From NCBI GenBank assembly GCA_000004695.1, contig CM000151.3, forward strand, positions 7,648,001 to 7,712,000: a stretch of 64,000 bases of DNA. The letters run 5' to 3'. Source of the DNA: Dictyostelium discoideum. Its lineage: Eukaryota. The position numbers and the translations under genes were made by a program. The notes beneath the pieces are model-generated. The model was given only the letters and a program-made list of their open reading frames with translations, was not told where the DNA came from and did not search any database. Each line of letters opens with the position of its first letter. Within the stretch, counting starts at the first letter, position 1. Positions 2,933 through 61,727 of this stretch are shown here, one piece after another.

Positions 2933-3004
<72 letters not shown>

Positions 3005-3691
3005 GTAATAATAATAATAATTCAATAATTTTTAAAATTGGTAATAATATTGAAAAAATTATAAAGAAAACATTAAATTTTATAAGTGGTGTAAAGTTTG
3101 ATTATAATTTATATGAATGTGAAATTAGACAAGCATTATCAAATACACAATCTATACTATGGTCAATTGAATCAATTGGATCATTAATTGTATCAGCACA
3201 AATAAATGATGATAGAGAAACTATGGAACTTTTGCATAGATATCAAATTCCTCAAAAGTTTTTAATACCATTATTCCAAATTTTAGCATTGATAGATCAA
3301 TTGGAAAAAGATTTATCTCATCAAATCGAATTAGATAAATTCACAATCAATAGAGATTATTACTTTTTAAAATCTTTCTCAAATTTAATTGAACCACCTT
3401 TAAATTGTTTAGGAATTTTAAAAACTTCAAGACCTCATTTTAGAATTTTTAAACTTGGTAAGTTTTTTTTTTTTTTTATTTATTCAATTTTTTAATTATC
3501 TTTTTCACAGTACCTAATTATTACAATTATTATTATTATTATTATTATTATTTCATTATTTAGTTGGTAAAAATATGATTAGTCAAGTACTTGAAACTAT
3601 TGGTCATCAAATATCAGACATTTCGTTCCCTTATGATTTAAGAACAACTTTGAATAGTTACAGAAATGGTGAATTTAGTATTTATCAATAA
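1277..3691 (+). CDS. Uncharacterised multi-pass membrane protein with poly-Q/poly-N tracts. 5 exons: 1277..1881, 1974..2216, 2314..2794, 2866..3467, 3564..3691
   Basis: ORFs 1277-1906, 2453-2893 and 3223-3495 join in frame through short AT-rich GT..AG introns (gtatgt...aaag, gtaagt...tttag). Exon 1 and 2 contain several hydrophobic helices. Stop TAA at 3689-3691. No family recognised. Confidence 0.55.
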
Positions 3692-3927
3692 ATTTTTTTT
3701 TAAAGATTTATAATTAAAATATTTGTTTTTTGGGATCTTATTTTTATTTTCTGTTTTGTTTCATTTATTTTACCAAAGTTTTTTTTTATTAACCCTCAAT
3801 TTCAGGGCTTAATGTTTTTATTGTTTGAAAGCCTTCGATAAATGTTTTATATTATTTTCTTAATATTTTTTTCACAAAAAAATTACAACAAAAATTTTCT
3901 TAAATAACCAAAAATCATATGATTATA

Positions 3928-4000
3928 GCTCGATTAGCTCAGTCGGCAGAGCGTGGTGCTAATAACGCCACGGTCGCAGGTTCGATCCCTGCATCGAGCA
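3928..4000 (+). tRNA. tRNA-Ile (anticodon AAU)
   Basis: Cloverleaf fits. Acceptor gctcgat pairs with atcgagc. D-arm is tagctcagtcggcagagc. Anticodon loop is gtgctAATaacgcca. T-arm is gcaggttcgatccctgc. Matches the canonical eukaryotic tRNA-Ile-AAT. Confidence 0.9.
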
Positions 4001-4031
4001 ATCATCTTTATGGGGAATTGAAACGATCAAA

Positions 4032-4043
4032 GGTTCGATTTCC
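4032..4043 (+). promoter_or_regulatory. External B-box (ggttcgatttcc), about 32 bp downstream of tRNA-Ile
   Basis: Matches the B-box consensus GGTTCGANTCC outside the tRNA body. Dictyostelium tRNA genes frequently carry such an ex-B box. Confidence 0.5.
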
Positions 4044-4506
4044 TTTGGATACACGTTCTTTGGTGCTTCCAAATCTTATCTCCAATTGGCCATCTAATCA
4101 ATTAAAATTTTTTTTGATTATATAATTTAACTTTTTTAACTTTCAATACTAACATATTTCAAAAGTAGATACCTAAAAAATGAAAATAATAATAATAATA
4201 AAAATAATATTAACTCTAAATTTTAACTAGACTATTTTGAAATTGTAAATTAAAATTTACAATTTGAAAATTCAAAATAAAAAAAGGAATAACTTTTTTA
4301 CATTTTGAAATTAAAATTCATAAATAAAACTATTAATTATTGTTATTTCCTTTAATATATAAACTTTGATTAATCAATATTATAAAAAAAATTAAAATTA
4401 ATTGCTGTTTATTTCTTTTAATGGATAAACACTGATTAATCAATATTAATAATAATTAAATAAAATTTTTATAATTAAATAATCAATATTAAATAATAAA
4501 CAAACT

Positions 4507-4572
4507 AACAAACAAACAAACAAACAAACAAACAAACAAACAAACAAACAAACAAACAAACAAACAAACAAA
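4507..4572. repeat. (CAAA)n microsatellite, about 16 units
   Basis: Perfect caaacaaacaaa... run visible in the sequence. Confidence 0.9.
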
Positions 4573-4687
4573 TAAATAAATAATTAATTATTTTAAAAAA
4601 ATTATTTTGAAGTATTAATTAAGAAATTTAAGTTTATTAAGAAATTTTTTTAAAACTTTAAAGTTAATTAAATTTTTTTTTTTTTTT

Positions 4688-5539
4688 TTAATTAATTTCA
4701 ATATTTTTTAAACAATATTCAATTGATTTTGGTAATTGTTTAATCAAGCTATCGATTAATTCAATTTGTGATAGTGCATAATTATAGTGAGCCAATGTTA
4801 TAGTTTCAATCAATTGTGATTGAATTTCATTTAAATAATTTGGATCCAACTTTGATGTTATATTTTTCTGATCATATTGCTTATCTAAAAAGTGAATAAC
4901 ATCTTCAATACCAACCAAACCAACTAAAGATATTAAAACTTGTTTAATTTTTTCATAATATTCTAAATTAATTTCTCCTTGAGCATTAACAGTTTTACCT
5001 TTATTTAAAATTCTTTTAACTTCTAAAATTTGAGAGTCATTTCCTTCTTCTGTTGGGAATAACATTTGAGAGACTCTTTTAAAAATTTTAGCTTTATATA
5101 ATTTATGATTATCAATGGAATCGCTGGGTCTAATATATATTACACAGGTGATTTTATAGGGAAGTTTATTAATTTTTGTGAGTAGCTCTTTTAACAAACT
5201 TATTGAGCCTCCTTCAAATATACAGCCATAACCCTTTTCATTTGGTAAATTTTGGGTGTCATAATTATTCTTTATTTCATTTAAAATGTTTATTAATTTA
5301 TTAACATAAAAAGTTTTTTTTATATTTTCATTCCCTGGTTCTACCAATAAATCGGTTAAGTAAATCCTTTTACTACCAAAATATTCGCTTTCATCGGGTC
5401 TACCAGATGTAATACTTAATTCTGGAAAACATTGAATTCTATCTAAAACTACAACAGGGGCATTATATTTTTTTGAATAATTTATTGACAAGTCTGTTTT
5501 GCCAACTCCAGTAGAACCGATAATTAATAAAATCTTCAT
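4688..5539 (-). CDS. iptA: Adenylate isopentenyltransferase (cytokinin synthase, Agrobacterium ipt/tzs-like), intronless
   Basis: 283-aa ORF. P-loop is GSTGVGKT. The segment PVVVLDRIQCFPELSITSGRP and the motif EGGSISLL align with Agrobacterium Ipt/Tzs ([29 protein letters not shown]). This is the known Dictyostelium iptA type. Confidence 0.88.
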   Translation of the reverse strand: MKILLIIGSTGVGKTDLSINYSKKYNAPVVVLDRIQCFPELSITSGRPDESEYFGSKRIYLTDLLVEPGNENIKKTFYVNKLINILNEIKNNYDTQNLPNEKGYGCIFEGGSISLLKELLTKINKLPYKITCVIYIRPSDSIDNHKLYKAKIFKRVSQMLFPTEEGNDSQILEVKRILNKGKTVNAQGEINLEYYEKIKQVLISLVGLVGIEDVIHFLDKQYDQKNITSKLDPNYLNEIQSQLIETITLAHYNYALSQIELIDSLIKQLPKSIEYCLKNIEIN

Positions 5540-5754
5540 TTTATTTTTTTAAAAAATATATTTTTTTTTATTTTTTTTTTATTTATTTAAAATAAATCTT
5601 TATTATTATTATTATTATTTTTTTTTTTTTTTATTTTTTTTTTAATATTATTTTTTATTTTTTTTTAAGTTGGCCATATAAATGGTTTTGTATGTGTAAA
5701 ATAATATATTTTATTTTTTATTTTTCTTAATCGAAAAATTGAGAGTAATAAATA

Positions 5755-5786
<32 letters not shown>

Positions 5787-6659
5787 TCTTATTTTATAGT
5801 TTTGACTTGTAATTTTTCCAAGTTTTTTTTTTTTTTTTTTTTTTTTTAGAAATAAAATTTAATTTAATTTAACTAAAATGAAATAGATCTCAATTTTTTA
5901 CTAAAAATATAAAAAAAAAATGAAAAAAAAATAAAAAATTAAAAAGAAAAAAAACAAAAAAAAAAGATTAAAATAAAATAAAATTAAAAAATTAAAAATA
6001 AAATAATAAAAAAAAGTCTTTTTTATATTTTGCATTTTAATTTGGCCGTATCAAAACTGCTGTTTTAGTAGTAGCATTAATGGTTTAAACCATTTTTTAA
6101 AAAAAAAATAATATTGAGGGTTAATAAGAGATTTTACCTTTATATAGTATGATCCCCAAAAAAAAAAAAAAAAAAATCTTTCTGCAGATCCTCCTAAAAA
6201 AAAAAATAAAAAAAAAAACAAAAAATACATTTTTAAATGATTTAATTAATTTTAGAAAACATAAAAAAACAAGTCATCCGATATCAAATATCTTTTTAAA
6301 AACTAATGTCAAAAAAAAAAAAACTCATTTTTGTGAGTGTGAGTGTAAAAAATATACATATATACAACTTCCAAATTAAGAAATTAAAAATTATTTTTTA
6401 AACACAAAATATCATATTTAATAAAGAGGCAAAAATGGTTAGAAAACAAATAGTTAACAATTTTGTGTTTATACTTAAATAACTTCTCTTTTTTTTCACT
6501 GGGAAACCTTTTTTGATATTCAGTTATTATATTTTTTAAAAGTCACTATTGTTTTTTATTTTAATAGATAACGAATAAATAACTTAAAATTAACAAGAAA
6601 TAATAAAATAAAATAAAATAAAAAAAATAAAAAAATAAAAAAAAAACTGTGGGTGTTAA

Positions 6660-6835
<176 letters not shown>

Positions 6836-7047
6836 ATTGTTATTGTTATTGTTATTATTTTTTTTTTATTTTTTTTTTTATTTTTTTTTTTTACATCGGT
6901 AGTTACAATTATAATTAGGTAATTGAATAAATATCTTTTTATTTTTATTTATTTTGTTTTATTTTTATTTTTATTTTTAGATTTTTTTATTACTAAAAAA
7001 AAAATAAAAAAATAAAAAAAAACTGAGGGAGATAAGGTCTTGAATGA

Positions 7048-10000
7048 TTAATGTTTCCAAGATGGTTTATCATCTTCGTCGTAATCGTCCTCATCATCGT
7101 CGTCGTCGTCATCATTTGCGTTGTTATTAATGTTGCTTCCGGATTTTAAGATAGTTTCTGTTGGAATTTCTTCATAGTCTTGTTCTTCTTCGTCTTGATT
7201 TTCATTATTATTATTATTATTATTATCGTCATTCATGTTATCAGCAGCATCTTCATCTTGATTATCATAAGCATCTTCATCAAATTCATCATCGCTACTC
7301 TTTTCTTTTATAGTTTGTTTAAATTGAGATTGGAGTTGTTGTTTTTGTTGAAGTTGTTTTGCTAGTATTTGTTGTTGTTGTTGTTGTAGTTTTTGTTGTA
7401 ATTGTGATAGCTGTTGTTGTGGTAGTTGTGGTAGTTGTTGTTTACTGAATTGAGGTAATAGTTGTTTTTCTTTATCTTGAACCCACTGTATATTTAAACT
7501 CTTTCCTTTATAAACTTTGGCAACAACAAACACCCTTTCAGCGGATTGTCTTTTACCAAATTTAATTTGAATTGAATTCTCCTCTTGAATAACTGATTCT
7601 ATATCGGTGAATAATTGTTTCAATAATGACTCATTTTTAAATTCTAAAGGAGGATCAATAATTTGAATTGTAGTGGTTGTATTATCAATTAGTATACTAT
7701 TATTCTTTGGTTTCTTTGCTATTATTGGTTTTTGTGCCACTAATCTTGGTGGTAACTTTTTAAAATTAGGTTTATTTGGTATTATAGGAGTAGTAGTAGT
7801 TGTGGTTGTAGGTATGGAGGTAATAGTAGTAGTAGCTGTTGCAGCAGAGGTTATAGTATTTGGGTCAATACCTAAACTCTTTGCTTCAGATTCTAATTCT
7901 TTTAATGTATTTGATAATTGTTCAATATTACCACTACCAGGTGCACCTTCAATTTCAATAGAGGTAGATGTTGGTGTAGTTGGTGTAGTTGGTGTTGTTG
8001 GTGTAGTTGGTGTAGTTGGCATTGGTGTAGTTGGTGTTGATATATTATTAAGGGTAGTAATTGTTGTTGATGTTGATGGTTGTGGTGTTGATGTTGAAGT
8101 TGAAGTTGATGGTGGTATTAAAACTGTTGATGCTGTTGTTGTTGTTGTTGTTGTTGTTGTTGCTGCTGCTGAAGTAGTAGAATTTAATTGATTTAATTGA
8201 TTTGTAGTTTGTTGATCTTTTTGTAAAGATTCAGTGATTGACTTTGTTAATTGTTTAATTGATTCTTTTATTGCATCTTTTTCTTTTTCATCTTTACAGA
8301 TTGCCAATTTAGTGAGTAATTGCTTTTGAAGATCTAATTGTTGATTTCTTAATTCCTCTCTAGATTTAACGACTAAAACTAGTTCTTTCTTCTTTTCAGA
8401 TTGTTTTTCCAATAGTTTTTTTCTATCCTCTAGCTTCTTTAACAATTGCTGTTCACGAATTTTCATTAAATCTTGATCACGTTTCTCTTTCTCTTCTTTC
8501 TTCTTTTGAATTTGTTCTTGTTTCTCTTGTTGTTCTTCAAATTTAGTTTTCTTTGCAGTTGCATGATCGAATGAATCCTCCCAAAACAATTTAATGAAAC
8601 GATTATTCATTATTGCTTCTGGTGATTTCATAGCTTTCATAGCTTCAGAGTTATTACTAAATTCAATCATAGATTTTGCTGTTGATAATTTCGTTATATT
8701 TGTAATAGTTCCAAACTTTGAGAAATGTTCTCTTATCTCTTCTTCAATATTTTGTTGTAATGGTATGTTGGTAATAACCAATTTTGTTGATTCTGAACTT
8801 GGGCAATTTGATGATGTTTTAATATTATCATATTGTTTATTACCTCTATTATTGTTATTATTGTTATTTTGGAAATCATTAAATTCTTCATCATCTTCAT
8901 TATTATAATTATTGCTGTTATTATTATTATTAATATTATTATTGTTATTATTATTAATATTATTATTGTTATTATTATTATTATTGTTATTATAAATATT
9001 ATTATTGTTATTATTATTATTAATATTAAAATCCATATTATTGAAGTCCATATTATTATTATTGTTGTTATTATTATGATTATTGAAATCCATTTGATTT
9101 TGATTCATTTGACCTATATACATTTGATTTTGATCCATCATTGAGAATGATGGTTGATTATTATTTATGTTATTATTATTATTATTATTGTTATTATTAA
9201 ATGATGAGAAAATCATTTGATTTGGCGATATATTAGCATTGTCGAATGGGAATGGTGGAGAATTATTGTCACTAACATTATTGACTGGTATATTAAAATT
9301 ATTATTGTTATTGTTATTATTATTATCATCATCAAACCTATTGTTAAATTTCCTAAAATTATTATTATTATTATTATCAAAATCATTAAAATTACCACCA
9401 TTATACATATATCCATTATTATTATTATTGTTATTGTTATTGTTCATGTTTTGATTATTGTTATTGATCATATCAATATTATTATTATTATTATTGTTAT
9501 TATTATTATTATTATTTAATAAGCTAAGATCATGTGAGAAATTACAACTATCTCCACGTGTACAAATACCATTCTTTTCAATGTATTTACATATTCTTGT
9601 ACTCTTCGGGAACTTTTTAAAACTATTATTATTATTATTGTTATTAAACTCATCATTTGTCGATCTTCTTTTAAATCTGTTTGCACCACTACCATTTCTA
9701 TATGTGTTGTTACCTGTCATATTATTATTGTTATTATTATTATTATTGTTGTTGTTGTTGTTATTATTATTATTATTATTAAATTCATCAAGTGGTTGGG
9801 GTGAATTTGATCTTGATCTTGATCTTTTTCTTGTATGAGTTGTAAGTGATGATGAGGATGGAGAAATAGATCTTTCTCTTTCTCTTTCTCTCTCTCTCTC
9901 TCTATATCTATTAGAGGAGGAGGAGGAAGAAGAAGAATTGTTATTATAGTCTCTATCATTATGATCTCTTTCTCTACTATTTCTATTTCTATCTCTATCT

Positions 10001-46599: not shown

Positions 46600-48289
46600 A
46601 TGTCAGAAGAGAAACTACCACTTTTATCTCCATTAAATGAAAATGATATTGAAAATGACTATAAAGATGAAAATTTAAAAAGTGATTTAGATAAATTATC
46701 AAATGTAAAAAAACAATCAATAATTCAAAGATTTAAAGATTATTTGAAAAATTCAATTTCAAAACAAACTGCCACTGTTTTAGTTTATGTTGTTTTATAT
46801 ATTCTTTCAGGTGTTATCAATAGTTTATTACTAAAGAAGGTAATGAATGTATTTACAAACTATGGTTTCTTTTTAAAGTAATTATTATAATAAAATTAAA
46901 AATAAAAAAAAAAATAAAAAAAAAAGTGAATAGAAAAAAAAAAAAAAATTTATTTTTTACTAAAAAATTTCCCATTTTTTTTTTGTATTTTATTTTTATT
47001 TTTATTTATTTTTATTTCTCTCTCTAGTCAATTAACAAATTATGGATATGTTCCAATTTTTGGAGCTATAGTACTTTATAAAATATTATTTACAAATGAT
47101 ATACCAAAAGATACTAGATCATTCCCACAATGGAAATTTGTTATTATGGGAGCATTGGATGCAGTTACAGGTTATTTTGTAGTTATTGGCGGTATTAAAA
47201 CAACAGGACCTTTACAACAGTTATTAAATCAATCAGTTATTCCATTCACAATGTTATTATCTTTCATTTTCTTAAAAGAGAGATACTCATTAATTCAATT
47301 AGGTGGTGCATTAATTATTATAGGTGGTGTTGTAGTCTCATTAATTCCTTCATTAACTGGTGGTAACACTAGTGGTAATATGTTATTTTATAATTTCTTT
47401 TATTTAATTTCAATGATTCCATATGCATTTTCAAATGTTTATAAAGCAATTGGTATTTATTTTTTTAAAATTTAAAAAGTTTAAAGAAATAATAATTAAT
47501 AATAATTTTTTTTTTTTTTTTTTTTAATAATTATAAGGATTTTCAACTGTTGAAGATATGGATGTTTGGTATTTACAATATTTTGATGCATTATATCAAT
47601 CATTAGTTGGTACAGTATTATTTCCAATTAATAATTGGTTACCACCACCATCAGATATGAAATTCAATCAAGTTATACCACAATTAAAAGCAGGTGGAAA
47701 ATGTTTAGGTGGTATAAATACATTGATTGAACAATATAATTCTACAACTGGTGAATTGTTACCAACATCTTGTAATTATGGTGATAATTTAGGTTGTGAT
47801 AATTGTCATGGTGCATGGGTGGTTGTATTGATTTATATGGCTGTAAATGTATTATATAATGTATTCATTCTATTAGTATTAAAGCATGCTGGTGCAACAG
47901 TATTTTCAATTGCAAATACTCTACGTTTACCTTTAACTAATATTGCATTCTCTTTTAAATTCATTATGGGTTCTGATTCAAATCCTTTCTCTGGTTTATC
48001 AGTTGCAGGTTTATGCATAATTTTATTAGGTTTGGGTGGCTATAGAGTTGGTTCAATGATTAAACAAAAGAAAGAAGCAGCTGCTTCTGCCGATTCTTCA
48101 TCTAATACTGAAAATAAAGTTATTCCAAAAGTTTTCCCTACTCAATTTGGTGAAGTATCGATAATAATAAAGAAAAAAGTCCCTCCAAAATCTCAAACTC
48201 ATTTAAGAAATCAATTCTTTGGTAAATTAGGTATTACTGTACCTGAATCAAAATTAAGAAATCAAAATAGTATTTATGGTGATCAATAA
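46600..48289 (+). CDS. CRT-like transporter (PfCRT / chloroquine-resistance-transporter family, DMT superfamily). Exons 46600..46877, 47028..47452, 47538..48289
   Basis: KFVIMGALDAVTGYFVVIGGIKTTGPLQQLLNQSVIPFTMLLSFIFLKERYSLIQLGGALIIIGGVVVSL aligns with PfCRT [79 protein letters not shown] matches PfCRT CDDCDGAW. Introns are gtaatt..ctctag (phase 2) and gtattt..ataag (phase 1). Confidence 0.85.
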
Positions 48290-48332: not shown

Positions 48333-49427
48333 TTAATTTAATATATTTATTATTTTTAAAAATTCACTATTATTATTATTATCATTATCTTCAATAATTG
48401 TTGAATAATTATTTATAAAAATACCTAAATATTTTAAATTTTTAGGTAATGATGAAATTGATAATTGTTGATTAAAATGTGTTGATCTAAATTCTAATCT
48501 TGTTATTGAATTTGAAAGTGAAGATGGTAAAATTGGTTGATTAAATGATGAATCAAATTTTAATTTTAATAAATTTGGTAATGATTCTGATGATAGTGAA
48601 GATGGTGGTGGGAAAATTGGTTGATTAAATGATGAACCAAATTTTAAAATCCTTAAATTTCTAGGTAATGAATTCGGCAATATAACTTGATTAAAAGATG
48701 ATCCAAATGTTATTTTTTCAATTGAATTTGGTAAAACATTACATTGAATTTCAGTATTAAATGAAACACCAAATTTTAAAACCCTTAATTTCGACAACCC
48801 ATCCAAATCACCAATCTTTAAATAACCATTAAATGTCCAACCAAATTCTAAAAATGTCAATGTCTTTGGTAATGTCCTATCATCCAATTCCTGACAAAAT
48901 GAATCTGACAACTTTATTGAAGTAATTGATTTTGAAAATATTGTCTCATCAATTAAACAATCATAATCTCTACCAAATGAAATATTTTCAACTTTATTTA
49001 ATGATAAATTATTATTATCATCATCATTATTATTATTTGATAATTTTGTAAAATTTTGATTGAAATCTCTATTTAAAATTAAAGTTTTTAAAGTTATTGG
49101 TATTTGAAATTGATTTTGATTAAAGTTTAATGAATATTTAAGATCAATTAATTCAACGCCAATTGGTAATGATTTGATGGGTTGATTAAAGTATTTACCA
49201 AATTTTAAATATTTAATTGTATTATCTGGTATTAAATTTATTGGTATCTCTATATTCATATCCCATTCCATTTTTACCAAATATTCTTTATCTTTAAATA
49301 ACTTATATTGTTCAACATTTTTAAAAACATTATACTTTTTACTATAATTTTTATATAATCTTAATATTTTAAAAATAATATTTTTTATATATAAATTTCT
49401 AAATACTTTATAAAATAAAATATCCAT
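48333..49427 (-). CDS. FNIP-repeat protein (second family member in window), single exon
   Basis: 364 aa. Repeats LKFGKYFNQPIKSLPIGV, ITFGSSFNQVILPNSLPRNL, LKFGSSFNQPIFPPP, LKFDSSFNQPILPSSLSNSI. The N-terminal MDILFYKVFRNLYIKNII parallels the gene at 30365-31636. Confidence 0.85.
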   Translation of the reverse strand: MDILFYKVFRNLYIKNIIFKILRLYKNYSKKYNVFKNVEQYKLFKDKEYLVKMEWDMNIEIPINLIPDNTIKYLKFGKYFNQPIKSLPIGVELIDLKYSLNFNQNQFQIPITLKTLILNRDFNQNFTKLSNNNNDDDNNNLSLNKVENISFGRDYDCLIDETIFSKSITSIKLSDSFCQELDDRTLPKTLTFLEFGWTFNGYLKIGDLDGLSKLRVLKFGVSFNTEIQCNVLPNSIEKITFGSSFNQVILPNSLPRNLRILKFGSSFNQPIFPPPSSLSSESLPNLLKLKFDSSFNQPILPSSLSNSITRLEFRSTHFNQQLSISSLPKNLKYLGIFINNYSTIIEDNDNNNNSEFLKIINILN

Positions 49428-49696: not shown

Positions 49697-50023
49697 TTAT
49701 GAGTTGAAACCGTATAAAGTTCTACCTTGTCTCTTGAGAGCATAGACTACATCCATAGCAGTAACAGTACGACGACCTGCATGTTCAGTGTATGCGACGG
49801 AATCACGAATAACGTTGGTTAAGAAAGTACGTAATACATTTCTAGTTTCTTCGTAGATTGGGAAAGAGATACGTTTGACACCACCTCTACGGGCTAAACG
49901 ACGGATGGCTGGCTTAGTAATACCGTTGATGTGTTCCTTTTGGGTTTTCTTATGACGTTTGGCACCAACTTTACCACCGACTTTACCACCTGTCTTACCA
50001 CCTCTTGATTGTGCTGAACTCAT
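49697..50023 (-). CDS. Histone H4
   Basis: 108-aa ORF. ..[83 protein letters not shown] is near-identical to canonical H4 ([86 protein letters not shown]). Confidence 0.95.
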
Positions 50024-51059
50024 TGTTTATTAAAATTTATATATATATTTGAAAATTTAAAAATTTGAAAATAAATTAACTTTAAAATAAAATAAAAAGA
50101 ATTGTTAAAAATTTATTCTCTAAAATTTAAATTTTTTTCTTTTTTTTTTTTTTTTTTAAGTGATCAAGTTATAATTATATTGGAAATTTACCTTATGTTT
50201 ATTCTTTTTAAAAAAATTGTATAATTTAAAAAAAAAAAAAAAAGTTTTTAAATACCTTTCGCGTGTGCTGAAATTTTTTTTTTTTTTTGAGACTGTCAAC
50301 GGTAAAAATAAAAAAAAAACAAAAATCCAAAAATACAAAATTTTTATATGGGGTTTTTTTTAAAAAATGCGTGGATGAATGAAGATACCGCCATTTTTAA
50401 TTTTTTTTTTTAAATGTGAATGTTTTTTAAATTTAAAAGTGAATTTTTTAAAATTTAAAAAAACTGGTGAAAATAACGGTGAAAACTATTTTCATTTTTT
50501 TTTTTTATTTTTTTTTTTATGTTCTTACTTTGGATATTTGCATTAATGTGAAAAAAAAAAAAAAAAAAAATTTATATTTTATAATGATGTTAACTAATAA
50601 AATAAAATAAAATAAAAATAAAATAATGTAGGCACCTATATTAATTAATAGGGTATAATATAAATTAGATTATAAATATCAATAATAATTAATTAATATA
50701 ATAACAATTAATTAATATAATAACAATAATATTTTACATTGAAAAGCTATGCATTGAGGAAAAACTAACTTGTACACTTTTTTTTTTTTTTTATTTTTAT
50801 TTTTAATTTATTTTATTTTTATTTTATTTTATTTTTTTTGTTTTTTATAAAAATTTCTTAGTATTACGAGCACTAAAATTTTTTTTTTTTTCAAAATTTT
50901 TTTTTTTTTTTTTTTATTTCTCATTTGGACGTATCAAATATATTGCCAATTTAAAAAAATAATAAATATATAAATATATTATTTAAATTTAGTTTTTTTA
51001 TTTTTATATATAAAAAATAAACATAAACACGAAAACAAAAAAAAAAAAAAAATTCATAG

Positions 51060-54000
51060 ATGGCAAGATCTGGTGAAAAAAAGAGAAAGTCAACATCATC
51101 CTCTTCAACAACAAAATCAACTCCATCAATAGCAGAAACACCAACATCTACACCTCCAGTAACAACAACATCAACAAAAACTTTGGATGATTCATTACAA
51201 TCACCAAAAAAATTAAAATCAAATAATGGACAACTAACAACAAGTACAGGTTCACCACATCAAAGTAGATTATCATTGGGTGGATCTACTTTGGTTACAA
51301 AAGATATACCTGAAAGTAGTAAGTAGTATATATATATTTATATTTACATACACAAATATTATTAATCATTTTTTACTAATAATTTGAAAAAATAAATAAA
51401 TAGTTTTATTATCAAGAAAAGGTGAAAAAGAATTAATTGATACACCAAAAAATTTTATTCAATTAAAAATTACATGTAAAGAAATGTTTCAAAATAGTGA
51501 TAATCAAGACATAGATATTTTATTTTCAGATTTATCAAATTTTCCAATTAAAGATGAAATTACTTATCAAAAATTTCTTACTACATCAAATCGTAATGTT
51601 TTAATATGTTATTTTGAAGGTGAAAGAATTTTAGATAATGGTAGTGAAGAAATTTTAGTTGATGTAACACCTTCAAAAAATATTTTATTAAAAGCTGGTA
51701 CTTCAGAATATAAGTAAGTTTTTTTTTTTTAAAATTAAAAAAAAAAAAAAAATAGAAAAAAAAAAATATAAAATTAATAATAAATTTATTATTATTTTAG
51801 TTTTCCAAATGCAATTGCAGAATTTATTGATAATTCAATTCAAGCAGTAAGATTAAATCCACCAGGTAAAAGAGAGATCAAGGTTACAATCAATAGACCA
51901 AATTCAGATTTAAGGACGACATCAATTAGAATTTGGGATAATGGATGTGGTATGAATAAAGATGCTTTACAAAGATGGGCGACTATGGGTTTAAGTCAAG
52001 CAGATTTATTGGATATAAATGGAAATGATAGTGGTAATAATAGTAATGGTGGTGAAGGTGGATCAGCCACAGGGGCAGCTTCATCATCAAATAATAATAA
52101 TAATAATAATAAACAATTGGCACATTCAAGTGGTAGCGGATCAAGTGAAAAAGCTACAGGTTTAATATCTAGATTTGGTGTTGGTGGTAAGAAAGCAGCA
52201 TTTTATTTAGGTTCAGAGGTGGTTGTAAATACAAAGGTTTGTGGTAATGAATGGGTGAATCAAGCGAAAATTTCATTGGACATTTTAAATTCAACGGGTG
52301 ATCAAGAATGGAAAATACCAATTATCATTAGAGAACCATCAAATGTAGAGAAAAAACATGATCAATTCACAGAGGTTATAATTAACAATGTCAATATGTC
52401 ATCAGAGAATTTCCAATCAACAATGGATTCATTGGCTAGAGATTTAGCTCATATATATTATTATTATTTACACGATGTTGGCGAACAATCTCATTTCACA
52501 CTTGGTGATAATAATTCACCACTTAAAAAACAAAAAACTTTAACATCTTCATCACAAGCTAATGGTACAACTAAAAAATCATCATCACAACAACTAATTG
52601 ATGAAGCAAGTTTAGAAGAGGATGTAGATATAGAAGATGAAGATGAAGATGATGAGGATTATGAAGAGGATCAAGATGAGAATAATAATAATAGTAATTC
52701 ACAATCATCATCATCATCATCATCACGTTATAGAATTAATTATTCAAATGATAAAAAGAATTCATATAAATTAATGTTAAATGATAAGGATTTAAGTGAT
52801 GTAGATGATTGTATTGAATCACAATATATTAAACAAGGTAAAAGATTTAAAGTTTTCGATTTCTCAATACCAATTAAAGACGCATCAACTGGTTTAGCAA
52901 ATAATGCAAAGGTGGTGTGTCATTTACGTTATTTCCCATTTTTGAATGAACATGAATCAATGCCAATACCAAATAAAATCCTTCAAGATTCACCAGAGCT
53001 AAATTTGAAAACTTGTCCATTATCTTTAAGAAAGCCAGGTTTTGAAGTTTTTTGGAATGGTAGATTAATTTCAGAGGCACATATCGATCGTTTAGGTTTT
53101 ATGTCCACTGGTACATTGGAAGGTTCAAAAATTGAAGAGAGATGGGTACAAAGAGTAAAGGGTGCAATCTTTTTAACATCTCATTTCCCTGTAACTCATA
53201 ATAAAATGCATATAATCAAAGAGTCACCAGTTTTTGATCTATTGGATCAACCTGCTGCAGGTGGTAAAATTGCAAAACTTGAATGGAAACGTTGGTTACT
53301 TCAATGTCATAAACTCGATCAAGACATTCAGTTCAAAGGTGCCAAATACGATACGGTCTCAAATAGAACCACTTGTGAAACCATCACTATTCGTGGTTTA
53401 ACAGTTGCCATTGATGACGCAGTTCAAATCGCACGTCTTCATAAGGGTATTGTAAAATCAATCTATTTCATTGGTCGTCCAGATTATCGTGCTTCCGATT
53501 TCTATGTTGAAATCGATAAACTTCATTATAAACAAATACCAACTGAAAGTTTTCTTTGTTCAAAAATTTCTAAAAAATTCTCAAAAAATGAATATATCAC
53601 ATTGATTCAAGCTTGTAAGAAAAGGTTACCTTCAAAAATTAAATTCTTTGAAGGTGATAAAGCAAATTTACCAAAGGAGGTCTATTTAGCCGGTGAAAAA
53701 ATCAAATGGGTCTCTTGTACACTCATGGATAGTCAAAATCCTCCAAAAGAAGTTGAAAGAAAAATCATCGAGGAAGAATCCTACAAAATAATGTTTAGTG
53801 TAATCTATCAACCAACCGGTGAAAATGTACATAAAATGGAAACTAGTGTCTTCTATGACTCTTCACGTGTTTCTTTTGGTGATATAGATTGTTTCAAACG
53901 TACTGGTACTTATAGTTTAATTTTCGAATGTAATGATAAATCTGTTAAAAAAGCAACTCATTTCGTTTCAGTAGTTGCTGGTAAACCAACTTCAATTAAA

Positions 54001-57000
54001 GCAACATTGGAAGGTATTGAAGATATTAAATCTTTAAAAGTTCAAATTGGTCAACAATTACCACCTCTTTTAATCTCTTTAATTGATAATGATAGTAATT
54101 TAGTATCAATAAATCAAATACCAAAGAAATTACAATTTAAAGCATTTTCATTAGATGATGATGAAAATGAAGATAATGATTCTCAAACTTTATCATCATC
54201 TCCACCACAAGATAAAGATGATAAAATGGATACAGATGAAATAAATAATAATAGTAATAGTAATAGTAGTAATAATAATAATAATATTAATAGTAATGGT
54301 ATTGGTTTAATTGGTGGTAAGGAAATTACATTAAGTAAATCAAATATAACAAGTGAATTAGTTAATAATCAAATTATTGTAAAAGGTTTAGTATTACCAA
54401 AAGCAGAATTAAATGACGAATCAGAATTATTGGTAACTATTCAAATTGTTATGGATGAATTTAAATTAAGAATACAACCTTTTACATTGATTTCAGGTGA
54501 ACCAGTTACAATGACATTCACAGAGCAATTAACATTTATAGATTCACCAAAAGGTCAATTAAAACCAAATGTTGATGAATTGGATGGTTATATGAATCTA
54601 ACTTATTTACCTCATTTCTATGTTTTTGTAAATGATAAAGATGGTAACATTTGTAGATTACCATCAAAGAAACCAGTTTCAACCATAACAAATAGTACAC
54701 AAACTACAGGAAGAGGTAGAAAACCAAAACAACAAGTTCAACAAGCTTCAGCCATGGCAGAGAATCCACCATTTTATATTATGGTTAGATCGGATAGTTT
54801 TGATGAATCAATTTATTATGTTTGCGATGAAAAAGGTTGTTTCTCATTATGTACTTATACAATTAGTGGTATTACAAAAAATCCAAGAGTTACTCCACCA
54901 CCAACAGCAATTTTAATTCATGAAAAAGTTGAAAAAGATTTTGAACCTGATGAACCTACTACAACTATAACAACAACACAATCAAAAAATAAAAAGAAAC
55001 AACAACAACAACAACAAGAACAAAATTCTTATTCAATTGCAACAATTAGTTTTACATTATTTAAAGATATGAATGAGTTATTTACAGTATCACAAAAAAT
55101 TAAAATTTTACCATCATTTAAACCATCTTATATTACATTACATCCATTAACTGATATTATTGAGGTTGATAAAGATTCATTTACAACTCAAGCTTCAGCA
55201 GAAATTAAATTTGGTATAAAAATTTTAAGTGCTGGTGGTGGTAATAGAGGTCCTTTCTTATTGAATGGTTTAATTGGATCAGTTCAACCTGGTTGGTCAC
55301 CAAAAACATTGGATTTCCAAATGAATAGTACTGCAAGTGATTCAATTGCCACTGGTAGTATGGTGATTTTACCAACGATCGTTGCCGATAGAAATACACG
55401 TTTCAATAGATATAATGTTTCAGTCGATATTCCATTGGGTAAACAAACGGTGAAACAATTCTCTTTAATGGCAGAGAATAAAGATCATATTATCACATTG
55501 AAAAAGGATTTCACAATTCAAACCGTTGGAGGTGCACCATCTTATTTCGTTTGTAATTTGGGTCGTGGTGTTGGTGCCGCTAGATGTGATAGTGAAATCA
55601 CATTGGAGATTGGATTGAATGATCGTCGTCATAATCCTGTCGCACCAAGTAATTTAAAATCAACAAAACCAATTGAACCATTCTTTGAACTTTCTTATCA
55701 ACAAGGTTATAGCTCTCAAATTCCATGTTTCATAAAGAGTCAAAGTGTTGGTGAGTTTGATGTCGATAAAAATATTTATCCTTGTAAGGTAACCGTGGTT
55801 GGATTTGGTAAACTAAACATTAAAGTCATTGATAAAAGTCAACAAATTAGTGAATGTTCAATGAATTTCGATTGTATCGAAGGTAGAGCCGCTCAACTTT
55901 GTGTTAATGGTTCAAATAAAACTACAATTCAGTGTAGTGGTGGCCAATTATTAGATGAAATTACATTTTTGGTTTGTGATACTCAAGGTAACCCAACCCG
56001 TTCTATCACTGGTGTCGATACTGAGTTAGAATGGGTGGATTTTACTTCACCATCGTCTGTACCAATCGATATTAAAAGTAGAGTTAAAATATCAAAGGGT
56101 GAAGGTAAGCTAAGTAATTTAGAAGTTAAAGCAAATGCTGAGGAGGGTACTTTTGTATTACGTGTTAAACCAAAACAATTGGATATTCAAGAGGCATTGG
56201 TTTCATTTGTTGTACGTGGTAAATTTTCAATAGTTTTATTAGATTCTCAAAGTTTACGTATCACTCCAACCAATTCAATCACATCACTCTCTGTTATGTT
56301 ATTAAATCCTGATAAAGTTCCAATGGTCGTACCAAAAGAAACAATGAAACTTTTAACTGTAAATAAAACTTATCCATGCACTGAAATCACTTTCCCCAAT
56401 GATGACGAAACTAAACCAGTCTATTTATTCAATGGTGTTGCATTCCCAAAGAAAGCTGGTCCAACCACTGTAACCTTTACTCATAATGTACGTAGTTCAA
56501 AGAATACTAAAATTCAAATGGAACAAGTTTTAATCGTTCATCCAGATTATCCAACCAAACTTTCAATTTGTGGTCAAATTAAATTTTCACCAACAACTTC
56601 AATACTTGGTCAAAAAATTGGTATCATTGCAACTGATAACTTTGATAATACTGTAGTAGTTGATGGTTCAATTAGAGTTACCATTGAAATTTCACCAAAT
56701 CATCCAAATGCTGGTTCATCCAATAGTAATTATGTTTTACCTACATTTTCAACTACTACTGGCGGCGGTGGCTCAAATAATAGTACTTATTTAGAAGAAT
56801 CATTTAAATCAATGGATGGTGAAGCAACATTTGAAGAATTAAAACTTAGAGATTCAATTGGTACAAGTGGTCCATTCCAATTGGTTTTCACTCCACATAT
56901 ACCTTCAATTCCAACTATTGAACCATTAAGAATTGAATTCTTTTATCAAAATCAAAAAGAATCATTAGATAAAAAAGTTAAACTTCAACAACAACGTGTT

Positions 57001-58086
57001 ATACTAGGTAATGAAATTAGTGATATTGATAAAGAACTTGAGGAATTAAAACAACAACAATCGAAAATTTTAAATGAATACACCAATTCAAAACACCAAG
57101 CCGATGAAATATTTAATCATCTTTCATCATTAATACCAAATTTAAATCCTGAAGCAAAAACTAATCCCGAGACTATAAAGAAATTAATTTCACAAACAAC
57201 TCAAGAGATTGAAGAGTTAACCAATAGTAATCGTCGTCGTCCACCTTATCCAAATAATCCAACATCTCGTGAACTTTTCGAAATACAACGTTCCACCAAT
57301 GATTCTGGTATAGTTGGTGTAATTATGGATTTGTTTTTCGTTGATGATGAACGTTTAGGTCAATGTTTAGCCAACTTTTTAAAATCTAAAATGGAGGGAG
57401 TTGTATTCCAAAACAAACAAACCTTTAGTCATTATTATGATCGTTATAGTAGTAAATCGGTTCAACCGGTTTTCTTTGTTTCTTTGGATACTCTAATACC
57501 TTTTACACCAAAGAAAAGATATCAAAATGGAAGTCAACAATCTCAATACCCTCAACCAACTCCTCCAAATCAATTGGATATTCAAACCTATGATGGAGCA
57601 CCAACTGCTGGTTTCGTTGGTTTCGTTGTAAATAAAGTTCAATTAAGAGAAAAACATGAATTCCTTAGACCAACACTTTGCTTCACTCTATTCAAAGAGA
57701 TGATGATTTTCAATACCCTCAAACAAGCTATGGAATATAAGAATTTTGCCGCTCAAAGAAAATTCCTTTCACCACCAATCATTTGCCTAGAGAATGGTGA
57801 GTATTTGGATTCTTCTGGTTTCGTTGAAATTGGTAGAGTTCCAAACTCTAGAAATTGGCATCAAAATTTAGGTCAACTTCCTCCAAATGAAACACCAGAG
57901 TTTGCTCAATTAAAAGCTAAAAAGAATGTACTAGAGGAATATCGTATCATTAAACATAAAATGCATTCAAATAAAAAAGGTGCTGAAGTTCAAGATTATA
58001 TGAATAAAATAGATGGTTTAAAACAACAAAAGAAAGAAAAATCCGCACAATTATTACAAGTTACAAATGAAATTTCAAATATATAA
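51060..58086 (+). CDS. SMCHD1-like chromatin protein (N-terminal GHKL-type ATPase and C-terminal SMC hinge, more than 2000 aa). Exons about 51060..51318, 51404..51713, 51801..58086
   Basis: GHKL motif I AIAEFIDNSIQA and motif II IRIWDNGCGM at the start of exon 3. The C-terminus has coiled coils (LDKKVKLQQQRVILGNEISDIDKELEELKQQQSKILNEY) followed by a hinge-like G-rich block (NDSGIVGVIMDLFFVDDERLGQCLANFLKSKMEGVVFQNKQT..GFVGFVVNKVQLREKHEFLRPTLCFTLFKEMMIFNTLKQAMEYKNFAAQRKFLSPPIICLE). The first exon is S/T-rich with a KKRK NLS. Placement of introns 1 and 2 rests on GTAAGT donors and frame continuity. Confidence 0.7.
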
Positions 58087-59246: not shown

Positions 59247-59251
<5 letters not shown>

Positions 59252-60479
59252 TAAAATTATTTTTTTAATTATAATTTTAATAAATGTAATAAATGGATAT
59301 GGTGAAATACCAAAATCATGGGATTCTAGAGAAGTATTAGTAATGATGAATTCTTTAAGAATGAATCCAAGTCAATATAAAGAGAATTTTATGAAACCAT
59401 ATGGATTTACAAATTTGGAAAATGTAATTACATCAAAATACTATGAACCTGTAACACCATTACAATTTAATGAAAGATTATACGATATGGCTCAAAGCCA
59501 TTCCATTGATATGTCTGCAAGTGATGATTGTTTTACATTTGAAAATTGTAATGGTACTTCATTTTATGATAGAATCGATGATTGGAAATGTGATGAAAAT
59601 ACTCAAGAGCATATTTATAAAACTTCCACTTCCAATAACGGATTAAAAGCAATCAATAGATTAGTATGTCGTAGTAGTAGTAAATGTTTAAATGATGATG
59701 CTCCTGATGTTGGTGATTTTCGTGATAGAATTATGGGAAAGGACATAAACTACTCTGGAACTGGTATTGTCTACAACCAAACTTTATCAACTTGGTTCTA
59801 CACTATGGATTTCACCCTAACTTCATGCACTCCACAAAATGACCTTGCATCTGGTGATAAATCAATAATCTCTGCCAGCCATACTTTTAAATATGGTGAT
59901 CTAAATTCCACATCAAGTTCCTCATCACCATTTTACCAACAACCACAACAACAGCAATTACCAATTACATTTATTGCAAATTATTTTAATTCAAGTAATT
60001 CACTTGATGGTTTATATTTATATGTAATTAGTAAAAATAGTAATTTAAAAGTTATGTTAAATAAATTATATTCAAGTGATAATGGTAAATCATCAAATGG
60101 AGTTTACTCAATAACTTTAAATGAAAATTCTTATCGTTCATGTGATTATTATTATTTTCAAGCAATTACTATATCAGGTAAAATTCAAAGATACCCAACA
60201 AAAGGATTTTTAAAGATTGTAGATTATAAACAATCTTGTGATGGTGCTTGGTCTGAAACTTCTACAACTTTTTCACCATCATTACCATCTTTACCTCAAT
60301 CTCATTTTTATAACTTTTTTCCAAACTTTATAAATAATCTTGAATCAAATAAGGAAGTTGAAATCAATAATGATAAAAGTATAAATCATAATTATTATAT
60401 TACCAGTAACACTACATTTTTAAATATTTCTACATTTTTAATAATTATTTTAATTAGTTTTATTTTATTATTGATTTAA
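59247..60479 (+). CDS. Secreted, probably GPI-anchored or C-terminally TM-anchored Cys-rich protein. Possible divergent CAP/SCP-like N-terminal domain
   Basis: 410 aa. N-terminal signal peptide MIKIIFLIIILINVINGYG. C-terminal hydrophobic tail FLIIILISFILLLI. The LVMMNSLRMNP...LQFNERLYDMAQSHSIDMSASDDCF segment loosely resembles the CAP domain hNxlR / L.W...La..Aq motifs. The assignment is weak. Confidence 0.5.
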
Positions 60480-60597: not shown

Positions 60598-61727
60598 TTA
60601 ATTATTTATTGATGTTTTAATTTGATTTTGTTCATTTTTATAATAATTCCAAATAATGATTGAAGCTATAAATGTTAAAAATATTATAATTGTATTTATA
60701 AAGTAAGGTGCTTGAGGAAAAAAGAAGGGTGATTTATTTGATATAAAATACATATATATATCACCTGTGGCTAATGCACCTGAAAATTGTGCCAAACTAC
60801 CAAGTGATTGTAATCCAGTTATAATTGTTCCCTGTAGCTCTGGTGGTGTTACAATTGAAATCAATGATTGAATGAGATTTGTATTATTTGGTACAAAAGT
60901 TCCAATACCACAACCAAAAATATAATAGTACTTACTATGATTTGAAAAAATCATTAAAATATGAGAACAAAAACTAATAAAAAATCCAATTGAAATTACT
61001 TTTCTTGTTGCTTAAAAAAAATATATATATAAAAATTAGTAATAGTTTTTTTTTTTTTTTTTTTTTTTTTCATTTTAAATTGCTTACAAAAAAAATTTAA
61101 TAAAATTGGAATTCCAACAGCTCCCCATAAAATTAAAATAAAACCTAACCCACCTATAAACAAACCAATTTCTTTTGGAGTCCATGAATACATTAAAGTT
61201 GTATAATAATAATAAGTATTTGAAAAATCTTGACTTGTATATGAAATTGAAATAAATAATAAAATGATCCAAAATAATGAACCTCTTGATGAGAATAAGT
61301 CATAAATATGTTTAAAAGGATTTAATGAATTTTTTTTTTCCTTATATGTGCTATTCTTTTTTGCAATTTCTAAACTTTCTAATAAAAATGGTAATCCAAA
61401 GAAACAAACAATTAACAATCCAGCTGCAACATATAAAGTTAAATCTTGGATAGGTGACCCTGAAGTGTAAACATAAATTAAAGGACCAAATATAATACCT
61501 GATCCAATTGCAACTCCAGCCAATGAATATAACAAGGATACATGGGATTCATAAAATGAAACATCTGAAATAAATGAAAAAACAGCTGCATTTGCTACAT
61601 TATTTAATCCTGCAATACTATGACCAACATAAAAATATATTAAATTGTTTGTTTTCATTGTTACCCAACATGATAATATATCAAAAAATGTCATTACAAA
61701 ACTTAATAATAATATTGGTTTTCTTCC

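Follow-up and report, generated by a model that had tools for sequence, protein, structure and literature searches.

Animal SMCHD1 and plant GMI1 both carry a GHKL ATPase and an SMC hinge on the same chain, and one locus of Dictyostelium discoideum raises the question of whether this amoeba has a protein of that kind as well. The locus lies at positions 51060-58086 (plus strand) of the window, by which we mean the whole stretch of 64,000 nucleotides analysed here (assembly GCA_000004695.1, contig CM000151.3, forward-strand positions 7,648,001 to 7,712,000), and all coordinates are given in its numbering. An original prediction, made from the letters of the sequence, had proposed a giant SMCHD1-like protein in an amoebozoan context at this place. 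We conclude, with a probability of roughly 0.9, that the gene at this locus, DDB_G0277185, is present in one copy and is orthologous to SMCHD1 (called GMI1 in plants); this reading includes the clamp mechanism that is proposed below by analogy.

The strongest evidence for orthology is collinearity over the full length of the protein. When nine full-length dictyostelid proteins (profile A2) were compared by hhalign with six vertebrate SMCHD1 proteins (profile A3), a single match was returned, with probability 100 and an E-value of 2.4e-69 over 1694 aligned columns. The match joined columns 151-2091 of A2 to columns 95-1949 of A3 and thus takes in the ATPase, the central region and the hinge, which speaks for an SMCHD1 orthologue and against a fusion that arose independently. 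The SMCHD1/GMI1-type architecture that had been claimed was borne out: the protein consists of a GHKL ATPase, an SMCHD1_S5 domain and a hinge flanked by helices, in the order of vertebrate SMCHD1.

Gene model and N-terminal ATPase

The predicted span runs exactly from the start codon to the stop codon of a three-exon coding sequence. Joined, the exons give 6855 nucleotides with one stop, at the end, and a product of 2284 residues. In an exact-sequence look-up, this product matched XP_642713.1 / EAL68778.1 / UniProt Q86K74, the DDB_G0277185 protein of D. discoideum AX4, at 100% of its residues, and the amoebozoan context assumed for the gene was therefore right. The label of the protein is 'hypothetical protein' at NCBI and 'SMCHD1 ribosomal S5 domain-containing protein' in UniRef. 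At 17-32% G+C, the window is strongly AT-rich. Both introns follow the GT..AG rule in the Dictyostelium style (GTAAGT...TAG), and the exons are in phase. The parts of the gene and of its product are as follows.

51060-51318, plus strand: exon 1, residues 1-87 (ending with the first base of codon 87), with the ATG at 51060 and the donor GTAAGT at 51319
51319-51403, plus strand: intron 1, 85 nucleotides, GTAAGT...ATAG; read-through meets an in-frame stop at 51324-51326
51404-51713, plus strand: exon 2, residues 87-190, with a possible ubiquitin-like domain and the conserved pre-ATPase linker VDVTPSKNILLKAGTSEY
51714-51800, plus strand: intron 2, 87 nucleotides, GTAAGT...TTAG
51801-58086, plus strand: exon 3, residues 190-2284 and the stop, an unbroken 6.3-kb frame of about 2095 codons
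51811-52491, plus strand: GHKL (Bergerat-fold) ATPase core, residues about 194-420, from Pfam and the alignment with 6MW7
52492-52806, plus strand: acidic S/N-rich low-complexity spacer between GHKL and S5, residues about 421-525
52807-53313, plus strand: SMCHD1-type ribosomal-S5-fold transducer, residues 526-694, including FPVTHNK (K658)
53329-56931, plus strand: central region, residues about 700-1900 (about 1200 residues), mostly beta-rich, with several low-complexity inserts
56938-57231, plus strand: helical arm on the N-terminal side of the hinge, residues about 1903-2000, with predicted helices at 1908-1967 and 1979-1997
57304-57834, plus strand: SMC hinge, residues about 2025-2201, from the profile, the predicted fold and the Pfam matches of orthologues
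57895-58083, plus strand: helical arm on the C-terminal side of the hinge, residues about 2222-2284, with predicted helices at 2222-2246 and 2251-2283

Everything from the GHKL motifs onwards, namely the S5 domain, the central region and the hinge with its two helical arms, is encoded in exon 3 alone. Since the GHKL motifs and the hinge share this one uninterrupted exon, the architecture is independent of any exon join, and the concern that the two ends might belong to separate transcripts does not apply. On sequence grounds, chance cannot account for a frame that stays open for about 2095 codons at 20-32% G+C. The peptides on which the original prediction rested were all found in one plus-strand frame, at the N- and C-terminal places assigned to them: AIAEFIDNSIQA at residues 194-205 (51811-51846), IRIWDNGCGM at residues 232-241 (51925-51954), GIVGVIMDLFFVDDERLGQCLANFL at residues 2026-2050 (57307-57381) and GVVFQNKQT at residues 2056-2064 (57397-57423).

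The exon joins were examined by comparison with relatives. At the exon 2-3 junction, AGTSEY/NFPNAIAEF (the slash marks the join) is collinear with 'AGTYEYY...LPYAIAEF' of vertebrate SMCHD1, and the linker VDVTPSKNILLKAGTSEY aligns with vertebrate 'TPHYDTLVRAGTYEYY', continuing directly into the N-box of exon 3. This apparent homology of the linker supports the exon 2-3 join. The exon 1-2 junction, PES/ILLSRKG, matches the pattern 'P-E/D-S-I-x-I-S-R-K/R-G' kept in other dictyostelid genera. Exon 1 encodes an S/T-rich low-complexity N-terminus carrying the basic clusters KKRK and KKLK, which could be nuclear localisation signals.

Domain matches of the product reached E-values down to 1e-43, and the GHKL ATPase was found at the N-terminus, where it had been predicted. 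Pfam HATPase_c_3 (PF13589) matched residues 189-258 at 2.1e-13, above its cut-off, and HATPase_c matched at 3.6e-6. In a single-sequence phmmer search of the PDB, the N-terminal crystal structure of human SMCHD1 (6MW7) was the sole strong match among solved structures (2.3e-14) and aligned in three collinear pieces, the third of which (domain 3) covers residues 563-701. The S5 transducer matched Pfam PF22899 (SMCHD1_S5) at 1.3e-43, with 149 bits against a cut-off of 27, over profile positions 1-167 of 168.

The N-box AIAEFIDNS contains E197 and N201, the equivalents of the catalytic glutamate and of the Mg-binding asparagine, respectively. In the 6MW7 alignment, the residue facing E197 is the alanine introduced in the E147A mutant chain; mutation of E147, the catalytic glutamate of SMCHD1, abolishes ATPase activity (PMC7458401). 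The G1 box WDNGCGM follows at residues 235-241, the G2 box and ATP lid SRFGVGGKKAAFYLG at residues 313-327, and LAHIYYYYLH at residues 405-414. A low-complexity insert rich in N, S, G and Q (residues 258-308; 51985-52137) separates the G1 box from the G2 box, in the region of the ATP lid. Across nine dictyostelid orthologues, whose overall identity is just 37-44%, the N-box, the G1 box, the G2 box with the ATP lid, LAHIYYYYLH and FPVTHNK are all invariant, and the 'NK' of the S5 domain (N132 and K133 of alignment A5) is unchanged from amoebae to fish. Because these catalytic motifs are conserved, the ATPase looks catalytically competent. The spacer between GHKL and S5 varies between orthologues and is without a counterpart in the vertebrate profile.

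The C-terminal hinge and its arms

The hinge is not recognised from the single sequence by Pfam. A scan of the full-length protein gave no SMC_hinge match at E<=1. In a scan of the isolated C-terminal region the score was 15.7 bits (E 0.021), below the cut-off of 22.5, in a match that nevertheless spans profile positions 2-114 of 116. The single-sequence search of the PDB likewise yielded, for the C-terminus, a weak DMS3 match at best (E=0.24). A profile (A1) was made of residues 1996-2247 and ten orthologous regions, 11 sequences in all. Against the PDB, A1 matched the Thermotoga maritima SMC hinge best (1GXJ at 2.4e-10 and 1GXL at 3.5e-10), followed in third place by Arabidopsis DMS3 (6OIS, 1.3e-6). 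The mouse SMCHD1 hinge (6N64) matched at 1.7e-5 and the Pyrococcus furiosus SMC hinge at 2e-4 to 3e-4, and Geobacillus SMC and SMC2 hinges were also among the matches. With E-values up to 10 admitted, eight of nine matches were SMC-type hinges, six of them at E<=3e-4, and the ninth was an unrelated designed protein (E=0.21). Pfam SMC_hinge itself matched 10 of the 11 orthologous C-terminal regions over nearly the full model length (best 4e-8), and in the Cavenderia fasciculata orthologue it exceeded the curated threshold with 28.9 bits at residues 1901-2043, the aligned position. Thus, the profile search that had been suggested for SMC_hinge failed with the single sequence and succeeded through the orthologue profile and the Cavenderia orthologue.

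Structure prediction also gave a hinge fold. The AlphaFold model of residues 1996-2247 (mean pLDDT 76) consists of two alpha/beta subdomains with a disordered Q/P-rich linker between them. When this model was compared with the PDB by Foldseek, 50 of the 50 matches listed were SMC hinges, each with probability 1.00. Among these, DMS3 was the best (5.2e-10), followed closely by T. maritima (5.6e-10, TM-score 0.81 on 1GXJ), and cohesin, condensin and mouse SMCHD1 (4.6e-7) were listed as well. The three tests (profile against the PDB, Pfam on the orthologues, predicted fold) are independent of one another and agree. By itself, the missing SMC_hinge match of the single sequence would have refuted the original prediction on its own terms, but the profile and fold tests are the more sensitive ones and overturn that failure.

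The C-terminal peptides singled out in the prediction, GIVGVIMDLFFVDDE...GVVFQNK, align with 'GLVDVVSNLIEVDEKYSLAVSVLLGGTAQNIVVRN' of T. maritima SMC, the strand and helix with which an SMC hinge canonically opens. The block had been described as G-rich and as lying about 1900 residues downstream of the ATPase motifs; it is not notably rich in glycine, and its actual distance from the N-box is 1832 residues. The two subdomains are pseudo-symmetric, and the disordered linker between them (residues about 2096-2124) contains PKKRY. The hinge ends in the closing motif ENGEYLDSSGFVEIG, in which E2190, G2196 and G2201 are invariant. This motif is closer to that of canonical SMC proteins (GE-hydrophobic..SG....G) than to vertebrate GDRISANGKFGG. 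From the sequence, a role in dimerisation or nucleic-acid binding may be assigned to the PKKRY patch, G2196 and G2201. The linker of the mouse SMCHD1 hinge carries DNA-binding arginines, whereas the Dictyostelium linker is Q/P-rich; in the latter (57517-57603), basic residues are confined to the one PKKRY patch.

The C-terminal coiled coil that had been proposed is consistent with the models, in which long, confident helices are predicted on both sides of the hinge. In the AlphaFold model of residues 1895-2284, pLDDT was 81-93 over the N-terminal arm and 88-93 over most blocks of the C-terminal arm. Foldseek aligned this longer model over 350-400 columns with structures comprising a hinge and coiled coil, namely the cohesin elbow and hinge 7OGT, DMS3 6OIS, P. 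furiosus 4RSJ and yeast condensin 4RSI. Global TM-scores were low, as expected, because the arms are flexible.

The central region gave no Pfam match in our local copy of Pfam, from which models PF26194-PF26201 are missing. Matches to PF26199 and PF26201 are precomputed for three dictyostelid orthologues and for all vertebrate SMCHD1 proteins. We take PF26194-PF26201 to be models of Ig-like domains of SMCHD1.

Relatives and standing within the family

Vertebrate SMCHD1 (6MW7, 6N64) and the Dictyostelium protein have the same elements in the same order: a GHKL domain with the catalytic glutamate, S5, a long central region, and a helix-hinge-helix end. They are also of similar size, the Dictyostelium protein having 2284 residues and vertebrate SMCHD1 about 2005. 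They differ in the low-complexity inserts of the former, which are typical of Dictyostelium and occur at residues 258-308 and 421-525 as well as within the central region and the linker of the hinge. Nearer to the Dictyostelium protein than vertebrate SMCHD1 are two GC-rich metagenomic homologues, about 30% identical to it, in which GHKL, S5 and hinge form one apparently intron-less open reading frame of about 2100 codons. These genes were found at 3001-9360 of a contig of JGI metagenome 3300056625 and as protein P0011. A search of a large protein database with the S5 profile returned short fragments for the most part and showed SMCHD1_S5 in a tick, a coral, a snail and a volvocine alga as well.

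Three other groups of proteins share parts of this layout. Canonical SMC proteins (bacterial Smc, cohesin, condensin, Smc5/6) have the helix-flanked hinge fold in common with it, and the mouse SMCHD1 hinge is reported to have its closest structural homologue in the hinge of T. maritima SMC (PMC7458401). In contrast to these proteins, which have a Walker A/B ABC head, divided between the two ends of the chain, and a 50-nm antiparallel coiled coil, the Dictyostelium protein lacks both and has a GHKL ATPase far away at the N-terminus of the same chain and short arms of about 60-90 residues. A canonical SMC protein was rejected as a candidate, as the ATPase is of the GHKL type and no SMC_N or ABC-type Pfam match was obtained at E<=1.

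The MORC family shares the Bergerat-fold ATPase, the S5 transducer and, presumably, ATP-driven N-terminal dimerisation, and SMCHD1 is regarded as a distant relative of MORC (PMC2292703, PMC7318180). MORC tails carry a CW zinc finger or coiled coil and no SMC hinge, whereas the Dictyostelium protein has an SMCHD1-specific S5 and a hinge. Membership of the MORC family was rejected, since the S5 domain fits the SMCHD1-specific PF22899 and a hinge is present; MORC is a relative only.

Plant DMS3 (6OIS, 6OIT), the best of the listed Foldseek matches to the hinge model, is without a GHKL ATPase and acts in the DDR complex of RNA-directed DNA methylation. We know of no counterpart of RNA-directed DNA methylation in Dictyostelium.

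Several observations weigh against SMCHD1 orthology or against a mammalian-like role, in addition to the single-sequence Pfam results given above. Human SMCHD1 has a ubiquitin-like domain at residues 25-110, ahead of the ATPase (PMC7458401). Such a domain was not confirmed here: phmmer aligned residues 137-190 with the end of the ubiquitin-like domain and the linker of 6MW7 at a domain i-Evalue of 0.036, and a profile-profile comparison of the isolated N-terminal 110 residues reached the linker alone, with probability 30. R1867, one of the arginines through which the mouse hinge binds DNA (PMC7458401), occupies a position that does not appear to be conserved when the closing motifs are compared by eye (GDRISANGKFGG vs GEYLDSSGFVEIG). 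Identity to vertebrate SMCHD1 is about 20%. A literature search returned no paper naming DDB_G0277185 or treating SMCHD1 in Amoebozoa, and SMCHD1 and Dictyostelium were co-mentioned in the literature searched incidentally only. Lastly, the one methyltransferase known from Dictyostelium is of the Dnmt2 type, and X inactivation is not known from it, so that the biological roles of the mammalian protein are not simply transferable; the context in which mammalian SMCHD1 acts (X inactivation, D4Z4, imprinted clusters) is absent.

Possible function, other explanations and surroundings

The mechanism that we propose is modelled on the mammalian protein (PMC7458401, PMC8286825) and on GHKL enzymes generally. 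By analogy, the hinge would hold two chains together constitutively and would also bind nucleic acid, and ATP binding would lead to transient dimerisation of the N-terminal GHKL-S5 modules, as in MORC, MutL and Hsp90. A homodimer opening and closing as a clamp could then bridge, compact or insulate chromatin. Speculatively, heterochromatic repeats or damaged DNA are likely substrates in Dictyostelium. The role in chromatin compaction and silencing that had been suggested for the gene would follow from its animal and plant relatives. It is conceivable, although we lean against it, that the dictyostelid protein keeps the ancestral job of SMCHD1 without CpG methylation, Xist or Polycomb marks. 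For example, this job may be ATP-dependent compaction or insulation of DIRS-1-rich centromeric heterochromatin, or restriction of foreign DNA.

The other explanation that survives best keeps the SMCHD1 family and the molecular mechanism and changes the role: the protein would act in double-strand-break repair or recombination, as plant GMI1 reportedly does in DNA repair, and not, like mammalian SMCHD1, in the heritable silencing of genes or repeats. It is favoured by an architecture common to the plant and animal branches and by the hinge, for which the hinges of bacterial SMC and of plant DMS3 give better scores than that of mouse SMCHD1, and the recruiting context of mammals (Xist, CpG-island methylation) is not known from Dictyostelium. 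However, the sequence favours neither repair nor silencing, one role does not preclude the other, and the H3K9me/HP1 heterochromatin that Dictyostelium has on its retrotransposon clusters would be a possible substrate for silencing. We regard an exclusive repair role as possible rather than probable.

That the giant protein could be an annotation fusion of two or more genes, or a decaying pseudogene, deserves consideration since the protein in the databases is a predicted one. In addition, one dictyostelid orthologue model from eukprot, P0009, bears an obviously foreign N-terminal GNAT domain of about 170 residues (Acetyltransf_3, 2.5e-16), which is unique among the orthologues and probably reflects a gene model run together with an upstream gene, not a domain gain. 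Such an artefact is very improbable for the D. discoideum gene, however, because its GHKL motifs and hinge share one long frame in AT-rich DNA, its catalytic residues are invariant, conserved motifs bridge the exon 1-2 junction (in dictyostelids) and the exon 2-3 junction (in vertebrate SMCHD1), and its length and domain order are kept in nine dictyostelid species and in the two intron-less metagenomic homologues. Least credible of all is a MORC-type GHKL and S5 ATPase with a generic coiled-coil tail and a superficial likeness to a hinge, which the lack of an SMC_hinge match at E<=1 in the full-length Pfam scan and the single E=0.24 match to DMS3 would allow, but which is contradicted by profile matches to eight solved SMC-type hinge structures, by SMC_hinge matches in all but one of the orthologous regions, one of them above the curated cut-off, by a predicted fold that finds hinges only among the matches listed, and by an S5 domain that fits the SMCHD1-specific model and no generic MORC model in a protein collinear with SMCHD1 from end to end.

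The gene neighbourhood is uninformative, as the neighbours are unrelated eukaryotic genes. Upstream, and divergent from the SMCHD1-like gene across an AT-rich intergenic stretch of about 1 kb (50024-51059), lies a histone H4-like gene (49697-50023, minus strand, 108 residues) with a GGKxGGK...RHKK tail. Its N-terminal tail is longer than that of canonical H4 and different from it, and its Pfam histone-fold matches are through CENP-T_C and TAF only. Next to it is a gene for an FNIP-repeat protein (48333-49427, minus strand, 364 residues), whose five repeats match Pfam FNIP at 1e-42; this family has undergone a great expansion in Dictyostelium. An open reading frame at 59247-60479 (plus strand, 410 residues, listed with a TTG start) has hydrophobic N- and C-termini and a weak CAP/cysteine-rich secretory protein domain (1.4e-5). 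Two partial open reading frames, one chloroquine-resistance-transporter-like (CRT-like; 47558-48289, plus strand, 6e-67, C-terminal half of the profile) and one encoding an MFS transporter (60996-61694, minus strand), are probably single exons of larger genes.

DDB_G0277185 is not a new kind of system, as the SMCHD1 lineage was recognised as ancient and widespread among eukaryotes in 2008 (PMC2292703). It is an uncharacterised and unsurprising member of an old eukaryotic family. A full-length SMCHD1 orthologue in Dictyostelium, with intact catalytic residues and a genuine hinge, gives the gene a firmer annotation than its public labels. It also supports the view that the fusion of GHKL and hinge is older than the split between Amoebozoa and animals, and it does so in an organism that lacks canonical CpG methylation. 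In humans, SMCHD1 is a disease gene, involved in facioscapulohumeral muscular dystrophy type 2 (FSHD2) and in BAMS (the Bosma syndrome of arhinia with microphthalmia), and Dictyostelium is potentially a cheap knockout model for it. If the dictyostelid protein does keep the ancestral job, this haploid and tractable amoeba could be a minimal model of how a GHKL-hinge clamp engages chromatin.

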